Shown here one piece after another: positions 57,547 to 64,000 of a DNA stretch of 64,000 nucleotides (positions within the stretch are counted from its first letter, which is position 1; the number at the start of each line of letters is the position of its first letter). The stretch is from IMG/VR virus record IMGVR_UViG_3300032305_003086, positions 62,599-126,598 of that record. One strand, given 5' to 3'. Under the pieces are notes generated by a model. The model ran no database searches and had not been told where the DNA came from. It was given only the letters and a program-made list of their open reading frames with translations. The DNA comes from a virus. Its lineage: Duplodnaviria; Caudoviricetes. Made by a program: the position numbers and the translations under genes.

Positions 57547-57816
57547 ATGAATTTTCTTAGACTTATTTTTTCAAATATTGAAAAAATGAAATCATCTATT
57601 AATAATAACTACTGTTTATTTTGTAGAACAGAGATAATTGATAAAAACCACTTTTGCAAGGAATTAGAAGAAGTAGGCGATAAAATAGTTGATTTTTATT
57701 TTAAATTAGAAGATCCCGAAAAAAAGGAAGTTATTGAGGGTTTAAATAATAATATTATTAAAAATCAAGAATTTTCTGAAAATATTAGAAACAAAATATT
57801 AGCTTATAGTTTATGA
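57547..57816 (+). CDS. hypothetical protein
   Basis: CLFC...HFC. Confidence 0.45.
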   Translation: MNFLRLIFSNIEKMKSSINNNYCLFCRTEIIDKNHFCKELEEVGDKIVDFYFKLEDPEKKEVIEGLNNNIIKNQEFSENIRNKILAYSL

Positions 57817-57948
57817 CATGCAAATTATTTTTGCACACACTTTACATTCTCCTTTTCCAGCCTATAATAATTTCGAAGCATCAAGAATGCAACCGAGCCT
57901 AAAAGGCCACGGTGCTTGCTGACCAGCAATGGTTGGGATGTGCGTGGG

Positions 57949-58224
57949 ATGGACCCACGAAAATCGCGGATTTTCCGCCTTATTGGTGCATTCCCATTCT
58001 GGAGAGTGCAAATGTCCCCTAGATTTCAACTGTCTGAAGAAGACCATCTTCTTGACAAAATTTATAAGTATATTGATTCTGCTGCAAAAACTTCCATAAA
58101 TCATCCAAATTCAGTGGATGAAATTGTTTTGTGGTGTTGTAGAGATGTTATTAGAGAGGTAATTAATCACAACACAATACGCTCTAGACCGATTATTTTT
58201 TGTGATGAATTTTCTAACAACTAA
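57949..58224 (+). CDS. hypothetical protein
   Basis: ATG 57949, downstream of TATAAT near 57863. Confidence 0.5.
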   Translation: MDPRKSRIFRLIGAFPFWRVQMSPRFQLSEEDHLLDKIYKYIDSAAKTSINHPNSVDEIVLWCCRDVIREVINHNTIRSRPIIFCDEFSNN

Positions 58225-58238
58225 AAGGAGAAATTATC

Positions 58239-58670
58239 ATGAGCAAATCAATTTGGTTTGGCCGAGAAACCTTTTATCCTGATTTCAAGCCGATTTATGA
58301 AATTGTTAGATTTGAACAAGATGAAATTTTTATTATCCCTCACGTTTGGGATAAGGAGAGGAGTGTTGATGTTCTAATAGAAACTTATGTTTTCCACATC
58401 TGCACAGGCTTAAATAAATCAATTTCACATGTGAGGCAAGGAGGTTATAAACTTATTTTTGGATTTAGAAATGAAACGGGCCATGAATGGAAATTAGCTG
58501 AGTATGAATTCTCTCATGTTGGCAAGGGGGGAGGATGTATCTGTCCCTCAATATACAAATATCGTTTCCAAGAATACCAAGGAGAATTTCCTGAAGAGTC
58601 TGATGTTACCGGATTTCCATCGTCATCTTTATTAGATGATAAGGCTTTTCTTGAAAAATATACGTACTGA
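58239..58670 (+). CDS. paralog family member A (YEIVR...GFPSSSL)
   Basis: AAGGAG RBS; shares conserved termini with the three downstream ORFs. Confidence 0.7.
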   Translation: MSKSIWFGRETFYPDFKPIYEIVRFEQDEIFIIPHVWDKERSVDVLIETYVFHICTGLNKSISHVRQGGYKLIFGFRNETGHEWKLAEYEFSHVGKGGGCICPSIYKYRFQEYQGEFPEESDVTGFPSSSLLDDKAFLEKYTY

Positions 58671-58692
58671 ACAATTAACAAAGGAGACAAAA

Positions 58693-58818
58693 ATGAAAAA
58701 GAGTTGGAGAGTTATCGATTCTAGAAAAAAAAGAATCGAAAGGATCGCTAGAAAAATAAAACGGCTTGAAAACAAGTTGGTTAGTTTGCGTCAAAATAAT
58801 TTTAAACTCGTTTGGTAA
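58693..58818 (+). CDS. small basic protein (41 aa)
   Basis: AAGGAG RBS before ATG 58693. Confidence 0.5.
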   Translation: MKKSWRVIDSRKKRIERIARKIKRLENKLVSLRQNNFKLVW

Positions 58819-58830
58819 AGGAAAACAATC

Positions 58831-59142
58831 ATGAAGATGGTCTATGAAATAGTTCGCATCGAAAAAGATAAAATTTTTATTGTTCCTAATCTTTCGGAAA
58901 AAACAATAATTGAGTCAAGTGCAACTTTGAATAGTTTTTACAAGCATGTTAGTAAAAACTGGGGTCGTAACTTACATGTTATTTTCGGTTTCAGAGAAGG
59001 ATTAAAATACGAATGGAAAGTAGTAAGATCTAAAAAAGCTGGTGCTTTTTGGGGAATTGAGTATTTCAAAGAATACGAAGGAGAAGTTCCTCAACAATTT
59101 GAAATTACTGGTTTCCCATCTTCGTCTTTATTTGATCTTTAA
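58831..59142 (+). CDS. paralog family member B
   Basis: YEIVRIEKDKIFIVP...EITGFPSSSLFDL. Confidence 0.75.
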   Translation: MKMVYEIVRIEKDKIFIVPNLSEKTIIESSATLNSFYKHVSKNWGRNLHVIFGFREGLKYEWKVVRSKKAGAFWGIEYFKEYEGEVPQQFEITGFPSSSLFDL

Positions 59143-59153
59143 GGAAAAAAATC

Positions 59154-59465
59154 ATGAAAACAACTTATGAAATAGTTCGCATCGAAGAAGATAAAATTTT
59201 TATTGTTCCTAATCTTTCGGAAAAAACAATCGAGACAAGAACAGCTGTGGGTCGTTTTTACAAGCATGTTAGTAAAAACTTGGGTTATAACTTATCAATT
59301 ATTTTTGGCTTCAGAAAATTTTCATTTTCTGAAGGATTAGAATACGAATGGAAAGTAATAGGATCTAAGAAATGGGGATTTATTAATTTCGCAAAATACG
59401 AAGGAGAAGTTCCTCAAAAATCTGAAATTACTGGTTTCCCATCTTCATCTTTATTTGATCTTTAA
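59154..59465 (+). CDS. paralog family member C
   Basis: YEIVRIEEDKIFIVP...EITGFPSSSLFDL. Confidence 0.75.
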   Translation: MKTTYEIVRIEEDKIFIVPNLSEKTIETRTAVGRFYKHVSKNLGYNLSIIFGFRKFSFSEGLEYEWKVIGSKKWGFINFAKYEGEVPQKSEITGFPSSSLFDL

Positions 59466-59490
59466 ACTCGTTTGGTAAAGGAAAACAATC

Positions 59491-59973
59491 ATGAAGATGG
59501 TCTATGAAATAGTTCGCATCGAAGAAGATAAAATTTTTATTGTTCCTTGTCCTGTTAATGACTTAGAAAACTTACTTTGGGATGAAATAAGTTTCAAAAA
59601 ATATTTCTGCGGTGGTTTCTATCGATACGGATACTCAATCTACGATAGAGTGAGTTTTCCAAGTTTGGAAAAAATTATTTCACAATTACAAAAAAAACTA
59701 GGAGCGGATGTATCTGAATTTAGTAAAATTCCATCTTGCAAAAATAAAAAAGGAAATAAAAGAGTTATTTTTGGATATAAAGATAGAGACAGATTAGTCT
59801 GGCAGGAGGTTGTTCTTCTTTTTCATTATAGAAACAAACATCCTGGAATTAGTGGCGGCGGTGGTCTTATTCCTTATTGCGAATGCTGCGATTACTTTTT
59901 GGCACCATACAACGAACATATTCCTGAACAAGAAATTACTGGTTTCCCATCTTCATCTTTATTTGATCTTTAA
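59491..59973 (+). CDS. paralog family member D
   Basis: Same termini, longer and highly divergent core. Confidence 0.75.
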   Translation: MKMVYEIVRIEEDKIFIVPCPVNDLENLLWDEISFKKYFCGGFYRYGYSIYDRVSFPSLEKIISQLQKKLGADVSEFSKIPSCKNKKGNKRVIFGYKDRDRLVWQEVVLLFHYRNKHPGISGGGGLIPYCECCDYFLAPYNEHIPEQEITGFPSSSLFDL

Positions 59974-59988
59974 AAAAGGAGAATTATC

Positions 59989-60612
59989 ATGGGTGGCGGA
60001 AGAAGGGTTGTTACTCAAAAAGAGCAAAATGCAGAATATTTAAATGACTATGCTGATTTTATTAAATATATAAAACATTTTGATTTAGACAAACAAGAAA
60101 TTGAATTGAAAGAGGAGTCTGTCGAGGCGGCATATCAGGTCCTAAGTCAAGAAATTATCAGAAATTTAGATTATGACAACTTAATAAAACTTAAGTTACT
60201 TAAGATAATTTTTGAATCTGATGATGTTGATAAAATGCTAAAATTTAATTTGAAAAGAATTAGATGGATGATTGGCAATGATTATGAAATTGGATTTACT
60301 TTAGATAAACTAGAAAATCTTATAAAAAGATCTGCGTCGAATTCGCTAGAATATGCGAAAAATATTGGAGACAGATTTGAAAAAGGAGAAAAGGTCCTAG
60401 CAAAATCTGATGAAATTAGGTTTGCACCTAAAGGCCATAGCTTTTCTATACTTTGTCTGCCTGCTCTTGAGTATGCTAAAATTATTGGTAAAAGATTTGA
60501 ATTAGGAGAAGAAAAAATAGCAAAAAAGACAGAATACATACACGAATATTCGAAAGTTGTAGGAATGCTCCCCGAAGAATTGCACAATATACTGATTGCA
60601 AGTTGCTTGTAG
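59989..60612 (+). CDS. hypothetical protein with LEYAK.IG.RFE.GE repeats
   Basis: AAGGAG RBS; two internal repeats. Confidence 0.6.
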   Translation: MGGGRRVVTQKEQNAEYLNDYADFIKYIKHFDLDKQEIELKEESVEAAYQVLSQEIIRNLDYDNLIKLKLLKIIFESDDVDKMLKFNLKRIRWMIGNDYEIGFTLDKLENLIKRSASNSLEYAKNIGDRFEKGEKVLAKSDEIRFAPKGHSFSILCLPALEYAKIIGKRFELGEEKIAKKTEYIHEYSKVVGMLPEELHNILIASCL

Positions 60613-60628
60613 ATTGCATAAATAAATT

Positions 60629-61630
60629 ATGAAATTTAATATAAAAGAAGTTAAAAAATATTTTAAGGAACAGGGATGTAAATTATTAGAAGAAAAATAT
60701 ATCAATGCTCATATAAAAATGAAATATATTTGTTCTTGTGGAAATGAATCTAGTATTAATTGGAATAATTTCAAAAGTGGAAAAAGGTGTGGTTGTAAAA
60801 GAAAAGATATACAAAAACTAACTAAAGAAGAAATAAAAAAAGAATTAGAAGAAAAAGGATGTGAATTTATATCTTCTGAATACAATGGATTGTGTCACTT
60901 TATTGAATGTAAGTGTAAATGCGGAAATTTAAGAAAATGCAAGTTGAGTAATTTTAGAAAAAGTTCAAGGTGTAGGAAGTGTCTTCATAAAGATTTGGCT
61001 CTTAATCTAGACTTAGTTAAGAATTATTTTTATGAAAATGGTTGCGAACTACTTGAAAAAGAATATAAAAATGCAAGAAATAAATTAAAATACAAGTGTT
61101 GTTGCGGACAAATTTCTAAGATATGTTTTTATAGTTTTAAAAATGGCAATAGATGTGATAAATGCGGAAATAGAAAAGTTTCTGCGTGGATGAGCAAAAA
61201 TAGACGGGGAGAAAAAAATCCTAGATGGATTAAAGATAGAGAAGTCAAGAGACATAATGACGCTTTTTGTGAAAAGTGCAGGTGCATGGTTAGAAGAACA
61301 TTAAAATTATTTAATAAAAATAAAACAAAGAAAACAGAATGTATTCTTGGTTACAAATTTATAGATTTAAAGAGACACATAGAAGGTCATAAAAATTGGA
61401 ATAAAATAAAAAATGAAAAATGGCATATAGATCACATTTTTCCATTGAAAGCTTTTGTTGAATATGATATACTTGACCCCACGTTGGCAAATTGTTTAGA
61501 AAATCTCCAACCAATGATTGGTAAAGAAAACATATCCAAGAGTTGCAAATATGATAAGTTTTCTTTTGAATATTGGCTTGAATCCAAGGGCATTAGCATA
61601 GAAAGGAGAAAAATACACCGTGAAATCTAA
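60629..61630 (+). CDS. free-standing HNH homing endonuclease with zinc-ribbon repeats
   Basis: Three CxCG...CxxC-type repeats; WHIDHIFPL...ANCLENLQPM...ENISKS HNH domain; overlaps the dnaE start. Confidence 0.8.
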   Translation: MKFNIKEVKKYFKEQGCKLLEEKYINAHIKMKYICSCGNESSINWNNFKSGKRCGCKRKDIQKLTKEEIKKELEEKGCEFISSEYNGLCHFIECKCKCGNLRKCKLSNFRKSSRCRKCLHKDLALNLDLVKNYFYENGCELLEKEYKNARNKLKYKCCCGQISKICFYSFKNGNRCDKCGNRKVSAWMSKNRRGEKNPRWIKDREVKRHNDAFCEKCRCMVRRTLKLFNKNKTKKTECILGYKFIDLKRHIEGHKNWNKIKNEKWHIDHIFPLKAFVEYDILDPTLANCLENLQPMIGKENISKSCKYDKFSFEYWLESKGISIERRKIHREI

Positions 61631-63035
61631 AATTGTTGGTTTTGAACATCTCCACCTCCATTCCGATTTCTCGGTGCTTTAACTTGACGGTTATGGCACC
61701 GCACATGAGTATGCCAAACGAGCCAAAGAAATTAATCAGCAATTTCTTTGTATAAGTGATCACGGCTCTTTAGGAGCCGTACCAAGACAGATTCAGGCTT
61801 GTGAAAAATATGGTGTTAGTCCAATATTTGCCTGTGAACTTTATATTAATCCTCTTCAGCCCACTCTAAACATAGGGCAAAAAGCCACAGATTTTACGGA
61901 GGATATGAGTCCAGAGGAGAGAAAAGATTTTAAAAAATCTTATCATTTATTGGCTATTGCTTATAACCAAAAAGGATATAGTAATTTAGTTAATTTATCT
62001 TCAGCCGCTTGGACCAGAGGTTTTTATTACAGGCCCAGAATAAATTATGACTTATTGCAGAACCACAAAGAAGGCTTAATTTTTACTAGTTGCTGTTATA
62101 ACTCTGAGATTGGCCAGGCCTTTGATCGCGGCGGTGATGAAGAAGGCTTTAAGATGGTGGAAAAATATATTGAATTTTTTGGCAAAGAAAATTTTTATCT
62201 AGAATTTATGCTTTTAGATTTCAATAAGCAAAAGCCTTATAATAAATTTATAATTAGAGCACATGATAAATATGGCTTGCCAATAATATTAAGTAACGAT
62301 TGTCACTACTGCCTTCAAGAAGACAGTAAAATGCAGCGGCTCATGCTAATGGTTCAGACTAAAAAAACTTTGAAAGAAATTGAAGAAAGAAAAGCTGAAA
62401 ATGAAACTGCTGATTTGTTTGAACTTCAAGACACAAACCTTTGGATGAAAAGTGAAGAAGAGCTTAATGCCAAGTGGCTTAGTCACTATTCTGATGATAT
62501 TCCCTGTGAATTATTTGAACAAGCTAAAATAAACACTACCAAGATTGCTCAAAAAGCAAAGGGAGTGGAATTAGATAGATCAATCAAGCTTCCTTACATA
62601 GAAGAAGCTGAAGAAAAATTATTAGAGGCAATAAAAATAGGATTTGATTATAGAAGATTGCCTAAAAATAAAAAATATTTGGGAAGAATTAAAGAAGAGT
62701 ACCAACTAATATGTCAAAAAGGTTTTGCTTCTTATTTTCTAATTCAAAAAATGATGACAGATGAAGCAAGAAGAATATGTCCTGAAATTTTGGGTTACGG
62801 AGATGGCTCAGAAGCTGTGGGGTGCGGTCGTGGCTCTGCTGTCGGATCCTTAATTTGTTATTGTTTAAGAATCACAGACGTAAATCCCATTCAGCATGAC
62901 TTGCTTTTTTCTAGATTTTTGAGTCCTTCTCGGGGCGGCAAGCAAATGAGATTGAGATTTTCTATAGACCCTGTTATAATTACTGAAGATCTAGCTGACG
63001 ATTGTCCTTTTGATGTTCCTCAAGAATACTATTGA
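61620..63035 (+). CDS. dnaE: DNA polymerase III alpha, N-terminal half (PHP domain + start of palm); in-frame TAA at 61680-61682
   Basis: AAAGGAG RBS + GTG 61620; HLHLHSDFSVL*LDG, SDHG, FACELY in frame with the tracked ORF 61905..63035 (HLLAIA, SNDCHY, GRGSAVGSL, FSRFL); ends before the PDID motif. Confidence 0.85.
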
Positions 63036-63733: not shown

Positions 63734-63767
63734 AAAAATCGCCGTTATTGCGGACGGCGAAATTTTT
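63732..63767. terminator. bidirectional terminator candidate between convergent genes
   Basis: A-tract, TCGCCGT/ACGGCGA stem, T-tract. Confidence 0.65.
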
Positions 63768-63781
63768 ACTTTCGAGTTGTA

Positions 63782-64000
63782 TTAGATTCCTCTCATTGCT
63801 CTCATGAGATTTTGATGTGCTGAGTTCATGTGTTTTCTTTCATGATCATGATTATGAGCTTCTTCATCTTCGTAGTCTTCTTCATCTTCTAGGCCTTCTT
63901 CATCTTCGTAGTCTTCTTCATCTTCTAGGCCTTCTTCATCTTCGTAGTCTTCTTCATCTTCGTAGTCTTCTTCATCTTCTAGGCCTTCTTCATCTTCTAG
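63782..64000 (-). CDS. C-terminal part of an acidic repeat protein (partial)
   Basis: Reverse frame reads LEDEEGLEDEEDYEDEED...AHNHDHERKHMNSAHQNLMRAMRGI*. Confidence 0.7.
   Translation of the reverse strand, partial: LEDEEGLEDEEDYEDEEDYEDEEGLEDEEDYEDEEGLEDEEDYEDEEAHNHDHERKHMNSAHQNLMRAMRGI
63859..64000 (-). repeat. 18-nt coding tandem repeat, two alternating variants
   Basis: CTTCTTCATCTTCGTAGT and CTTCTTCATCTTCTAGGC, about 8 units, truncated by the window end. Confidence 0.9.

Follow-up and report, generated by a model that had tools for sequence, protein, structure and literature searches.

Introduction

How can a phage make an essential replication enzyme when a stop codon lies inside a conserved metal-binding motif of its gene? 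This question is raised by dnaE-N, which encodes the N half of a split DnaE, in a 64,000-nucleotide stretch of viral DNA (the window). The window covers the final 64 kb of an IMG/VR record of 126.6 kb, IMGVR_UViG_3300032305_003086, which is estimated to be 25% complete. In the first PHP motif of this gene, a TAA codon stands between two identical leucine codons, CTT-TAA-CTT, and the DnaE frame continues behind them. A preliminary description of the window proposed that the ribosome hops from the first CTT (the take-off codon) to the second (the landing codon). In this study, we compared the locus with related viral loci. The comparison suggests that the interruption probably belongs to a homing-endonuclease cassette, and that this target-disrupting gap would be bypassed by the peptidyl-transfer RNA (tRNA) for leucine, peptidyl-tRNA-Leu.

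Results

The first PHP motif of dnaE-N is interrupted by an in-frame stop

The elements on which the proposal was built, namely the AAAGGAG ribosome-binding site, GTG 61620, the in-frame CTT-TAA-CTT and the continuation into DnaE, were all confirmed from the sequence. Translation from GTG 61620 gives (M)KSKIVGFEHLHLHSDFSVL. Past the TAA, the same frame reads DGYGTAHEYAK...SDHG...FACELY and runs up to TGA 63033-63035. The preliminary description had also placed a 376-aa DnaE open reading frame (ORF) downstream of the TAA. An ORF is indeed there, but 376 aa is the ATG-to-stop call only; the conserved frame has 450 aa. In a Pfam search, this downstream part matched PHP (PF02811, 1.6e-33) and DNA_pol3_alpha (PF07733, 5.4e-24, profile positions 16-98). 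When the PHP profile was run against the whole record, its positions 1-161 were aligned across the TAA with 135 bits and one TAA inside the alignment. The PHP motifs HLHLH, LDG, SDHG, ACELY and NDCHY were all present. Because CTT is repeated, the position of the six inserted nucleotides is ambiguous, with 61677-61682 and 61680-61685 as the two extremes; we describe the gap as TAA plus the second CTT.

The dnaE-N gene of the window stops just before the catalytic PDxD motif. This split was found throughout the clade: the N half, which consists of PHP and the palm to about profile position 98, ends before PDxD in 58 of the 58 loci examined. In four related records (G002-G005), the C half (profile positions 100-260) is encoded 5-7 kb further downstream by ORFs of 457-932 aa on the same strand; that of the window would lie past the contig end.

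A gene that is already split might be split once more. According to this explanation, no recoding takes place: the 20-aa peptide would be dispensable or act on its own, and re-initiation past the stop would supply the remainder of DnaE-N. The division of dnaE into N and C halves across the clade agrees with it, and MobA/MobE insertions are known to give split yet functional proteins (bioRxiv 10.1101/2022.08.31.505936). However, the 74 conserved codons past the TAA contain no in-frame ATG, GTG or TTG. The first such codon is at 61905, and the sole nearby TTG (61684) is out of frame. Ribosomes on that stretch must therefore come from upstream. An in-frame start codon was likewise absent past the 5-8-nt gaps of the sister phages described below. 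In addition, the short frame keeps the H-x-H ligands and is under purifying selection, as shown in the next section. We consider a further split improbable.

The gap is an insertion in a gene under purifying selection

A related-locus search yielded 61 related viral loci, which are referred to by L-numbers; the window's own dnaE-N locus is WIN. The same gap was found, with variation, in two contigs from other samples, as CTT TAA CTA in L002 and CTC TAA CTT in L006. A degenerate pattern scan of IMG/VR showed that only these two records carry the window-type gap besides the window. The dnaE-N proteins of the three carriers are 75-92% identical, and their flanking leucine codons all belong to the CTN family, the take-off and landing codons being CTT/CTT in the window, CTT/CTA in L002 and CTC/CTT in L006. 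Since there are point differences among the three independent assemblies, an assembly artefact is excluded.

In about 20 distinct uninterrupted relatives, the motif reads HLHLH(S/T)D(F/Y)S(V/L)LDG and its length is invariant. These relatives lack the six nucleotides, and no relative has an in-frame sense insertion in the PHP motif. In the closest uninterrupted relatives, L003 and L012 (87% identity), the junction is identical to the predicted hop product, and removal of the six nucleotides from the window gives exactly this junction. A sense codon replaced by a stop, as in readthrough genes, was not what we found; the stop belongs to a two-codon insertion. The six nucleotides are thus an insertion and not a nonsense substitution.

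We then compared the short upstream frame among the three carriers. There were at least nine synonymous changes versus two conservative ones (V/M and S/T), and both of the latter sit where intact genes vary too. When the true short frames of all cassette groups were pooled, 21 synonymous changes stood against four amino-acid changes. A ribosome-binding site and a start codon precede the short frame in every interrupted locus. Across the 61 related loci, the downstream frame has remained intact, with 55-91% identity and a common end point. Purifying selection acts on the short upstream frame as well as on the downstream frame. The preliminary description had held that a nonsense point mutation would not explain the extra length, had suggested that the gene is still under selection and had asked whether related phages lack the six nucleotides or keep matched codons around a stop. 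The comparison bears out its reading on each of these points, and the PHP ligand motifs are kept as well.

These data also bear on the possibility of a dead gene or a wrong sequence, in whose favour it may be said that the record consists of one metagenome contig. A pseudogene or an assembly error is close to refuted, since the gap occurs in three independent contigs, the changes in the short frame are mostly synonymous and the 450-aa frame is intact over all 61 loci. Moreover, a profile search found a single PHP/dnaE-N in each gap-bearing record, all of which are partial genomes.

Sister phages carry stop-led gaps in all three frames

The PHP motif is interrupted in over half of the relatives. 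Two sites were distinguished: site 1 lies directly after HLHLH, and site 2 is the window's own codon, at which the window-type gap is a rare form known from the three IMG/VR records. At site 1, we found 19 distinct gap types of 5, 6, 7 or 8 nt in about 30 contigs. All of them open with an in-frame stop codon (TAG in 17 types, TGA in two). The last three nucleotides are NAY in 15 of the 19 types and CAA in one. The gap end matches the histidine take-off codon CAY at two or more positions in 18 of 19 (binomial p of about 2e-10 against 0.25 expected, although the types are not all independent). In L069 and L075, both of which have intact HNH genes, the gaps end in a perfect CAC and a perfect CAT. 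The close sisters L009, L010 and L011 have gaps of 6, 5 and 8 nt, respectively, which indicates that decoding is indifferent to frame. As judged from the sequences, such indifference would be the signature of re-pairing at a non-overlapping codon and not of readthrough or single-base frameshifting.

Longer inserts were also found. L033, L036 and L040 carry 40-41-nt inserts after (S/T)D, whose lengths are not multiples of three and which contain GC hairpins of 10-13 bp (z about -3.1 to -3.4; about positions 2945-2990 of each locus). L036 and L040 lie on different branches of the dnaE tree and have a common GCCCCCGG...CGGGGGCGCAAAAAAC framework. At the window's codon, L083 has a 46-nt out-of-frame gap, CTC TAA ... 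ATT GAC, with its take-off codon and its stop both placed within the 5' arm of a hairpin of 18 bp (z -7.35). This locus has two gaps ten codons apart (L083:3030-3125), an 8-nt TAG-led gap after HLHLH and the 46-nt TAA-led gap.

Readthrough is the main rival of hopping. In this case, a near-cognate or suppressor tRNA would decode the TAA and two extra residues would be left in the first PHP motif, which would read SVL-X-L-DG. All three carriers have the gap in frame, and the base 3' of the stop is C in each of them; a C after the stop is a weak termination context. On the other hand, TAA is the least leaky stop codon, and in this record it is the commonest genuine one, ending 64 of 115 long ORFs. 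ARAGORN found no tRNA gene anywhere in the 126.6-kb record, the window included; this record covers about 25% of the genome and so leaves room for a phage suppressor tRNA elsewhere. Conserved in-frame stops in bacterial genes have been interpreted as readthrough (PMC7918605). However, the gap is an insertion with no in-frame sense counterpart in the motif of any relative, and readthrough can rescue neither the neighbour-site gaps, which occur in all three frames, nor the out-of-frame gap of L083 at the same codon. The frame-independent stop-led gaps of the sisters, the L083 gap and the linkage to an HNH gene described below favour hopping over readthrough, which we regard as unlikely.

Group I introns were detected by Rfam (91-102 bits) in the V/L codon, 1-4 nt from the position of the window's gap, in L018-L020 and L048; L048 also has an intact HNH gene upstream. 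The introns at nearly the same site in L018 and L048 lend some plausibility to removal or absence of the gap at the nucleic-acid level, either by RNA processing or editing or through a gap-free subpopulation that provides DnaE in trans. Rfam gave nothing at the gap loci, however, and we know of no mechanism that splices 5-8 nt in bacteria or phages. The gap-bearing lineages are widely diverged and have kept the gene intact, which speaks against a reliance on helper genomes. This explanation appears slightly less probable still than a further split of the gene.

Two other candidates were rejected. Frameshifting by +1 or -1 cannot rescue an in-frame gap; to account for the sister gaps, tRNA-His would have to re-pair on AUU or GCA, and the NAY endings would be left unexplained. 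An alternative genetic code is at odds with the 64 of 115 long ORFs that TAA terminates, and reading TGA as Trp at the end of dnaE-N adds just three codons.

Several relatives have other kinds of alteration in dnaE-N. L051, which has an intact HNH gene upstream, has a one-T deletion (L051:2985-3005; GAT TTT CTT versus GAT TTT TCT), which may represent either a -1 slip site (U UUU C) or a sequencing error in the homopolymer. L005/L085 (about 1900-3009 of L005) and L050 (after residue ~395) have in-frame inserts of at least 1.1 kb within one long ORF (831 and 840 aa). These inserts, located in the PHP ACELY motif in L005/L085 and near the C-terminus of dnaE-N in L050, look like inteins. Rfam found no intron in L005, L050 or L051.

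The gap is associated with an upstream HNH endonuclease gene

A gene for a homing endonuclease of the HNH family lies directly upstream of dnaE-N in the window (Table 1). The protein has three Cys-rich repeat modules and the C-terminal motif WHIDHIFP...N..NLQP...EN..K. It matched phrog_559, 'HNH endonuclease' (6e-17), and phrog_1035, 'endonuclease VII', in PHROG. In an alignment of seven homologues, H266, D268, H269, N288, N292 and N301 are invariant, giving the pattern W-H-x-D-H-I-x-P ... N ... N-L-x-P ... N-x-x-K. Neither the protein nor its homologues had a Pfam match, and a PDB sequence search with the HNH protein gave noise only. In a tblastn search, HNH genes of Bacillus, Lactococcus and Vibrio phages were among the best matches and a T4 Mob protein was not; no direct comparison with the T4 cassette or MobA sequence was made. 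No second HNH paralogue was found in the record.

We searched the related loci for this gene by tblastn and with a hidden Markov model built here. In the L041 group, L048, L050, L051, L069 and L075, a full-length homologue directly precedes dnaE-N, as does a diverged one in L083, and remnants were found at the same place in L002, L006, L011 and L054. When distinct junctions were counted, the HNH gene or a remnant accompanied 13 of about 31 interrupted junctions and none of 20 uninterrupted ones (Fisher p 4e-4). The support for the idea that the HNH protein may cleave the gap-free target, and that the gap may confer immunity, comes from this association. In L059, an ORF of the same HNH family is located directly downstream of dnaE-N, at the split point (L059:3671-4114).

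The surroundings of the gap were then compared with those in gap-free relatives. By blastn, positions 57565-57816 of the window lie directly upstream of dnaE in L003, L004 and L012, so that a 3.8-kb block ahead of dnaE-N is missing from the closest uninterrupted relatives. L002 retains only the last ~220 nt of the HNH gene from this block, yet keeps the gap. In a sliding window, the identity between WIN and L006 was 87% over 61601-61691 and about 65% downstream. The opposite was observed with L012 and L003, whose identity to WIN was 50-65% over 61601-61691 and 80-95% downstream. The cassettes at site 1 are mosaic likewise. To explain the gap states on the dnaE-N tree, at least two changes are required at site 2 and at least nine at site 1. 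The mosaic pattern suggests that cassettes have been transferred between dnaE backbones.

Proposed mechanism

From these sequence comparisons we propose the following course of events, which we consider more likely than not. The HNH endonuclease (60629-61630) would cut the uninterrupted PHP-motif dnaE of competing phages, and repair would copy in the cassette, consisting of the HNH gene, the ribosome-binding site, the first 20 codons and the gap. The gap would disrupt the nuclease's own target. Ribosomes would initiate at GTG 61620 and arrive at CTT 61677 with TAA in the A site. Peptidyl-tRNA-Leu would then unpair, the messenger RNA would slide by six nucleotides, and the tRNA would re-pair on CTT 61683. 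Decoding would restart at GAC 61686 to give a product containing ...HLHLHSDFSVLDGYG..., the same as in gap-free relatives. The predicted hop junction peptide is SDFSVLDGYGTAHEYAK, with no extra residues. Both the hop and its efficiency are predictions from comparative data.

Several observations weigh against this proposal. Since the gap is in frame, readthrough would likewise yield a full-length protein. The matched leucine codons count as one observation, because the three carriers descend from one cassette. TAA is recognised by both release factors, and termination should compete strongly with a hop; synthetic stop-hops in E. coli reportedly reach an efficiency of only about 1%. A nascent-peptide signal like that of gene 60 is impossible just 20 codons into the protein. 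The landing rule is broken in L008, where the site-1 gap ends in GTC and a perfect CAC lies one base out of register. The hairpin inserts of L033, L036 and L040 are not stop-led, and L083 would require two consecutive bypasses.

The predicted RNA structures also belong on this side of the balance. Two candidate structures were examined (Table 1). In the long-range stem, all pairs are kept among the three carriers, and the paired columns show one change in 24 versus about ten in 37 between the arms; however, this change is from G-C to G-U, there is no compensatory change, and the fold of the whole region is not significant (z -0.74). The take-off hairpin has a predicted energy of -15.4 kcal/mol and is not significant either (z -1.35), and its outer stem is present in L002 and lost in L006. 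A strong take-off hairpin was found only in the long gap of L083.

Genome context

As shown in Table 1, the features of the locus all lie on the plus strand.

Table 1. Coordinates of the features at the dnaE-N locus of the window
Feature	Position	Strand	Remarks
Block missing from the closest uninterrupted relatives, 3.8 kb	57817..61619	+	Contains the HNH gene, one ORF of 207 aa and four small ORFs that are paralogues
Free-standing HNH (His-Me finger) homing-endonuclease gene, 333 aa	60629..61630	+	Overlaps the start region of dnaE with its stop
Mosaic cassette segment (HNH 3' end, ribosome-binding site, short frame, gap)	61556..61691	+	Common to WIN and the otherwise diverged L006
Shine-Dalgarno sequence AAAGGAG	61602..61608	+	11 nt upstream of GTG 61620; serves the dnaE-N short frame; conserved in L002 and L006
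Possible long-range RNA stem, 11 bp	61616-61627 with 61665-61676	+	Surrounds the short frame, with its end at the take-off codon; predicted by RNAalifold from WIN, L002 and L006
dnaE-N 5' short frame, 20 codons, GTG to take-off codon	61620..61679	+	First PHP strand with the H-x-H metal ligands
Possible take-off hairpin	61672..61701	+	Take-off codon and TAA in the 5' arm; outer stem CGGUGCU/GGCACCG; inner stem 61680-61684/61689-61693
Proposed take-off codon CTT (Leu)	61677..61679	+	CTT in L002, CTC in L006
6-nt coding gap: TAA 61680-61682 and proposed landing codon CTT 61683-61685	61680..61685	+	Not present in the uninterrupted relatives (about 20 distinct ones)
Rest of dnaE-N: PHP domain and first third of the Pol III alpha palm	61686..63035	+	Resumes at GAC (Asp of LDG)

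The closest GenBank relative of the phage is an unannotated uncultured phage of 595 kb (54% identity), and one related record is complete at 527 kb. These records indicate a huge-phage lineage without a cultured member. Inside the 3.8-kb block, positions 58239-59973 hold the four tandem paralogous ORFs of 103-160 aa. Common to them are the N-terminal sequence ...YEIVRxExDxIFI(I/V)P and, at the C-terminus, the tail ITGFPSSSL(F/L)D; they had no Pfam match.

The contig end (window 63782-64000, minus strand) falls inside an ORF of a tandem acidic repeat, EDEE(G/D)(L/Y), which probably caused the assembly break. A terminator-like GC-rich hairpin with a T run lies just ahead of this ORF at 63737-63765. 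In the related huge phages L018 and L033, phage-encoded genes for transfer-messenger RNA (Rfam RF00023, 100-112 bits) were found at L018:6703-7061 and L033:4878-5221, 0.6-2.4 kb downstream of the end of dnaE-N.

Discussion

Programmed bypassing is certain only in T4 gene 60 and its homologues and in one yeast mitochondrial lineage. At gene 60, a nuclease gene, MobA, lies upstream of a gap that protects from self-cleavage; the arrangement is transferred horizontally, and the nuclease decays while the gap stays (Manning & Atkins, bioRxiv 10.1101/2022.08.31.505936; PMC5009743). The dnaE locus resembles it in many respects. In both, an HNH gene is located directly upstream of the gap-bearing gene, which encodes an essential replication enzyme, and the gap interrupts a conserved metal-binding motif close to the 5' end. 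A stop directly follows the take-off codon and the landing codon matches it. Some relatives keep the gap without the endonuclease, transfer is mosaic, and the host gene is split. The 46-nt gap of L083 even has the gene 60 architecture, with take-off codon and stop in the 5' arm of a hairpin.

There are also differences from gene 60. The gap lies in the PHP motif of dnaE here and in the Toprim domain of a topoisomerase there, and it measures 6 nt in frame instead of 50 nt. The window has no significant take-off stem-loop, and a frame of 20 codons makes a long nascent-peptide signal impossible. Among the relatives, the dnaE gaps take several forms (5-8 nt, 40-46-nt hairpins and introns), and bypass is predicted from sequence.

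Synthetic stop-hops, in which matched codons flank a stop, are established (1987 work cited in PMC5009743). The window has the same order of leucine codon, stop and leucine codon, with one leucine expected in the product. Those constructs were engineered, whereas the arrangement in the window is natural, conserved and located in an essential gene. A 2016 review knew of no natural in-frame stop-hop (PMC5009743).

The 'byps' of Magnusiomyces capitatus mitochondria are bypassed inserts of 27-55 nt (PMC5009743). As proposed for the dnaE gaps, these inserts are mobile, interrupt essential genes and are made harmless by bypassing. A match between take-off and landing codon at only two of three positions is frequent among them, as it is at the histidine codon of site 1, and some contain GC-rich hairpins, as do the inserts in L033, L036, L040 and L083. 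They differ in being mitochondrial and longer, with an unassigned sense codon in the A site and no linked homing endonuclease.

The conserved readthrough stops of prokaryotes (PMC7918605) are similar in that an in-frame stop lies within a gene under purifying selection. They are, however, substitutions of sense codons, whereas here two codons are inserted, a nuclease cassette is present and sister gaps are out of frame. In 2022, a survey concluded that the gene 60 cassette 'remains unique' (bioRxiv 10.1101/2022.08.31.505936), and we found no published description of such dnaE gaps in the literature.

In its widest form, our interpretation is that the window contains a natural, selected in-frame stop-hop in which nine nucleotides are read as one leucine. 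It would be a member of a large family of stop-led gaps of 5-8 nt in any frame, planted by homing cassettes in the dnaE PHP motif of huge phages and bypassed efficiently without the signals of gene 60. We see this wide form as evenly balanced between true and false. Gene callers cut these dnaE genes short, and the catalytic H-x-H strand is lost from annotation.

No natural analogue of the classical synthetic stop-hop would be cleaner than the gap in the window. An independent endonuclease-plus-gap cassette in another essential gene would suggest that an untranslatable insert skipped by the ribosome is a recurrent route to self-immunity for homing elements. Here the gaps shrink to 5-8 nt, and their dozens of natural variants form a ready mutational series for the minimal requirements of take-off and landing. 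If the wide form of our interpretation is true, short-range bypassing is far easier in vivo than the synthetic constructs imply, or a phage or host factor promotes it.

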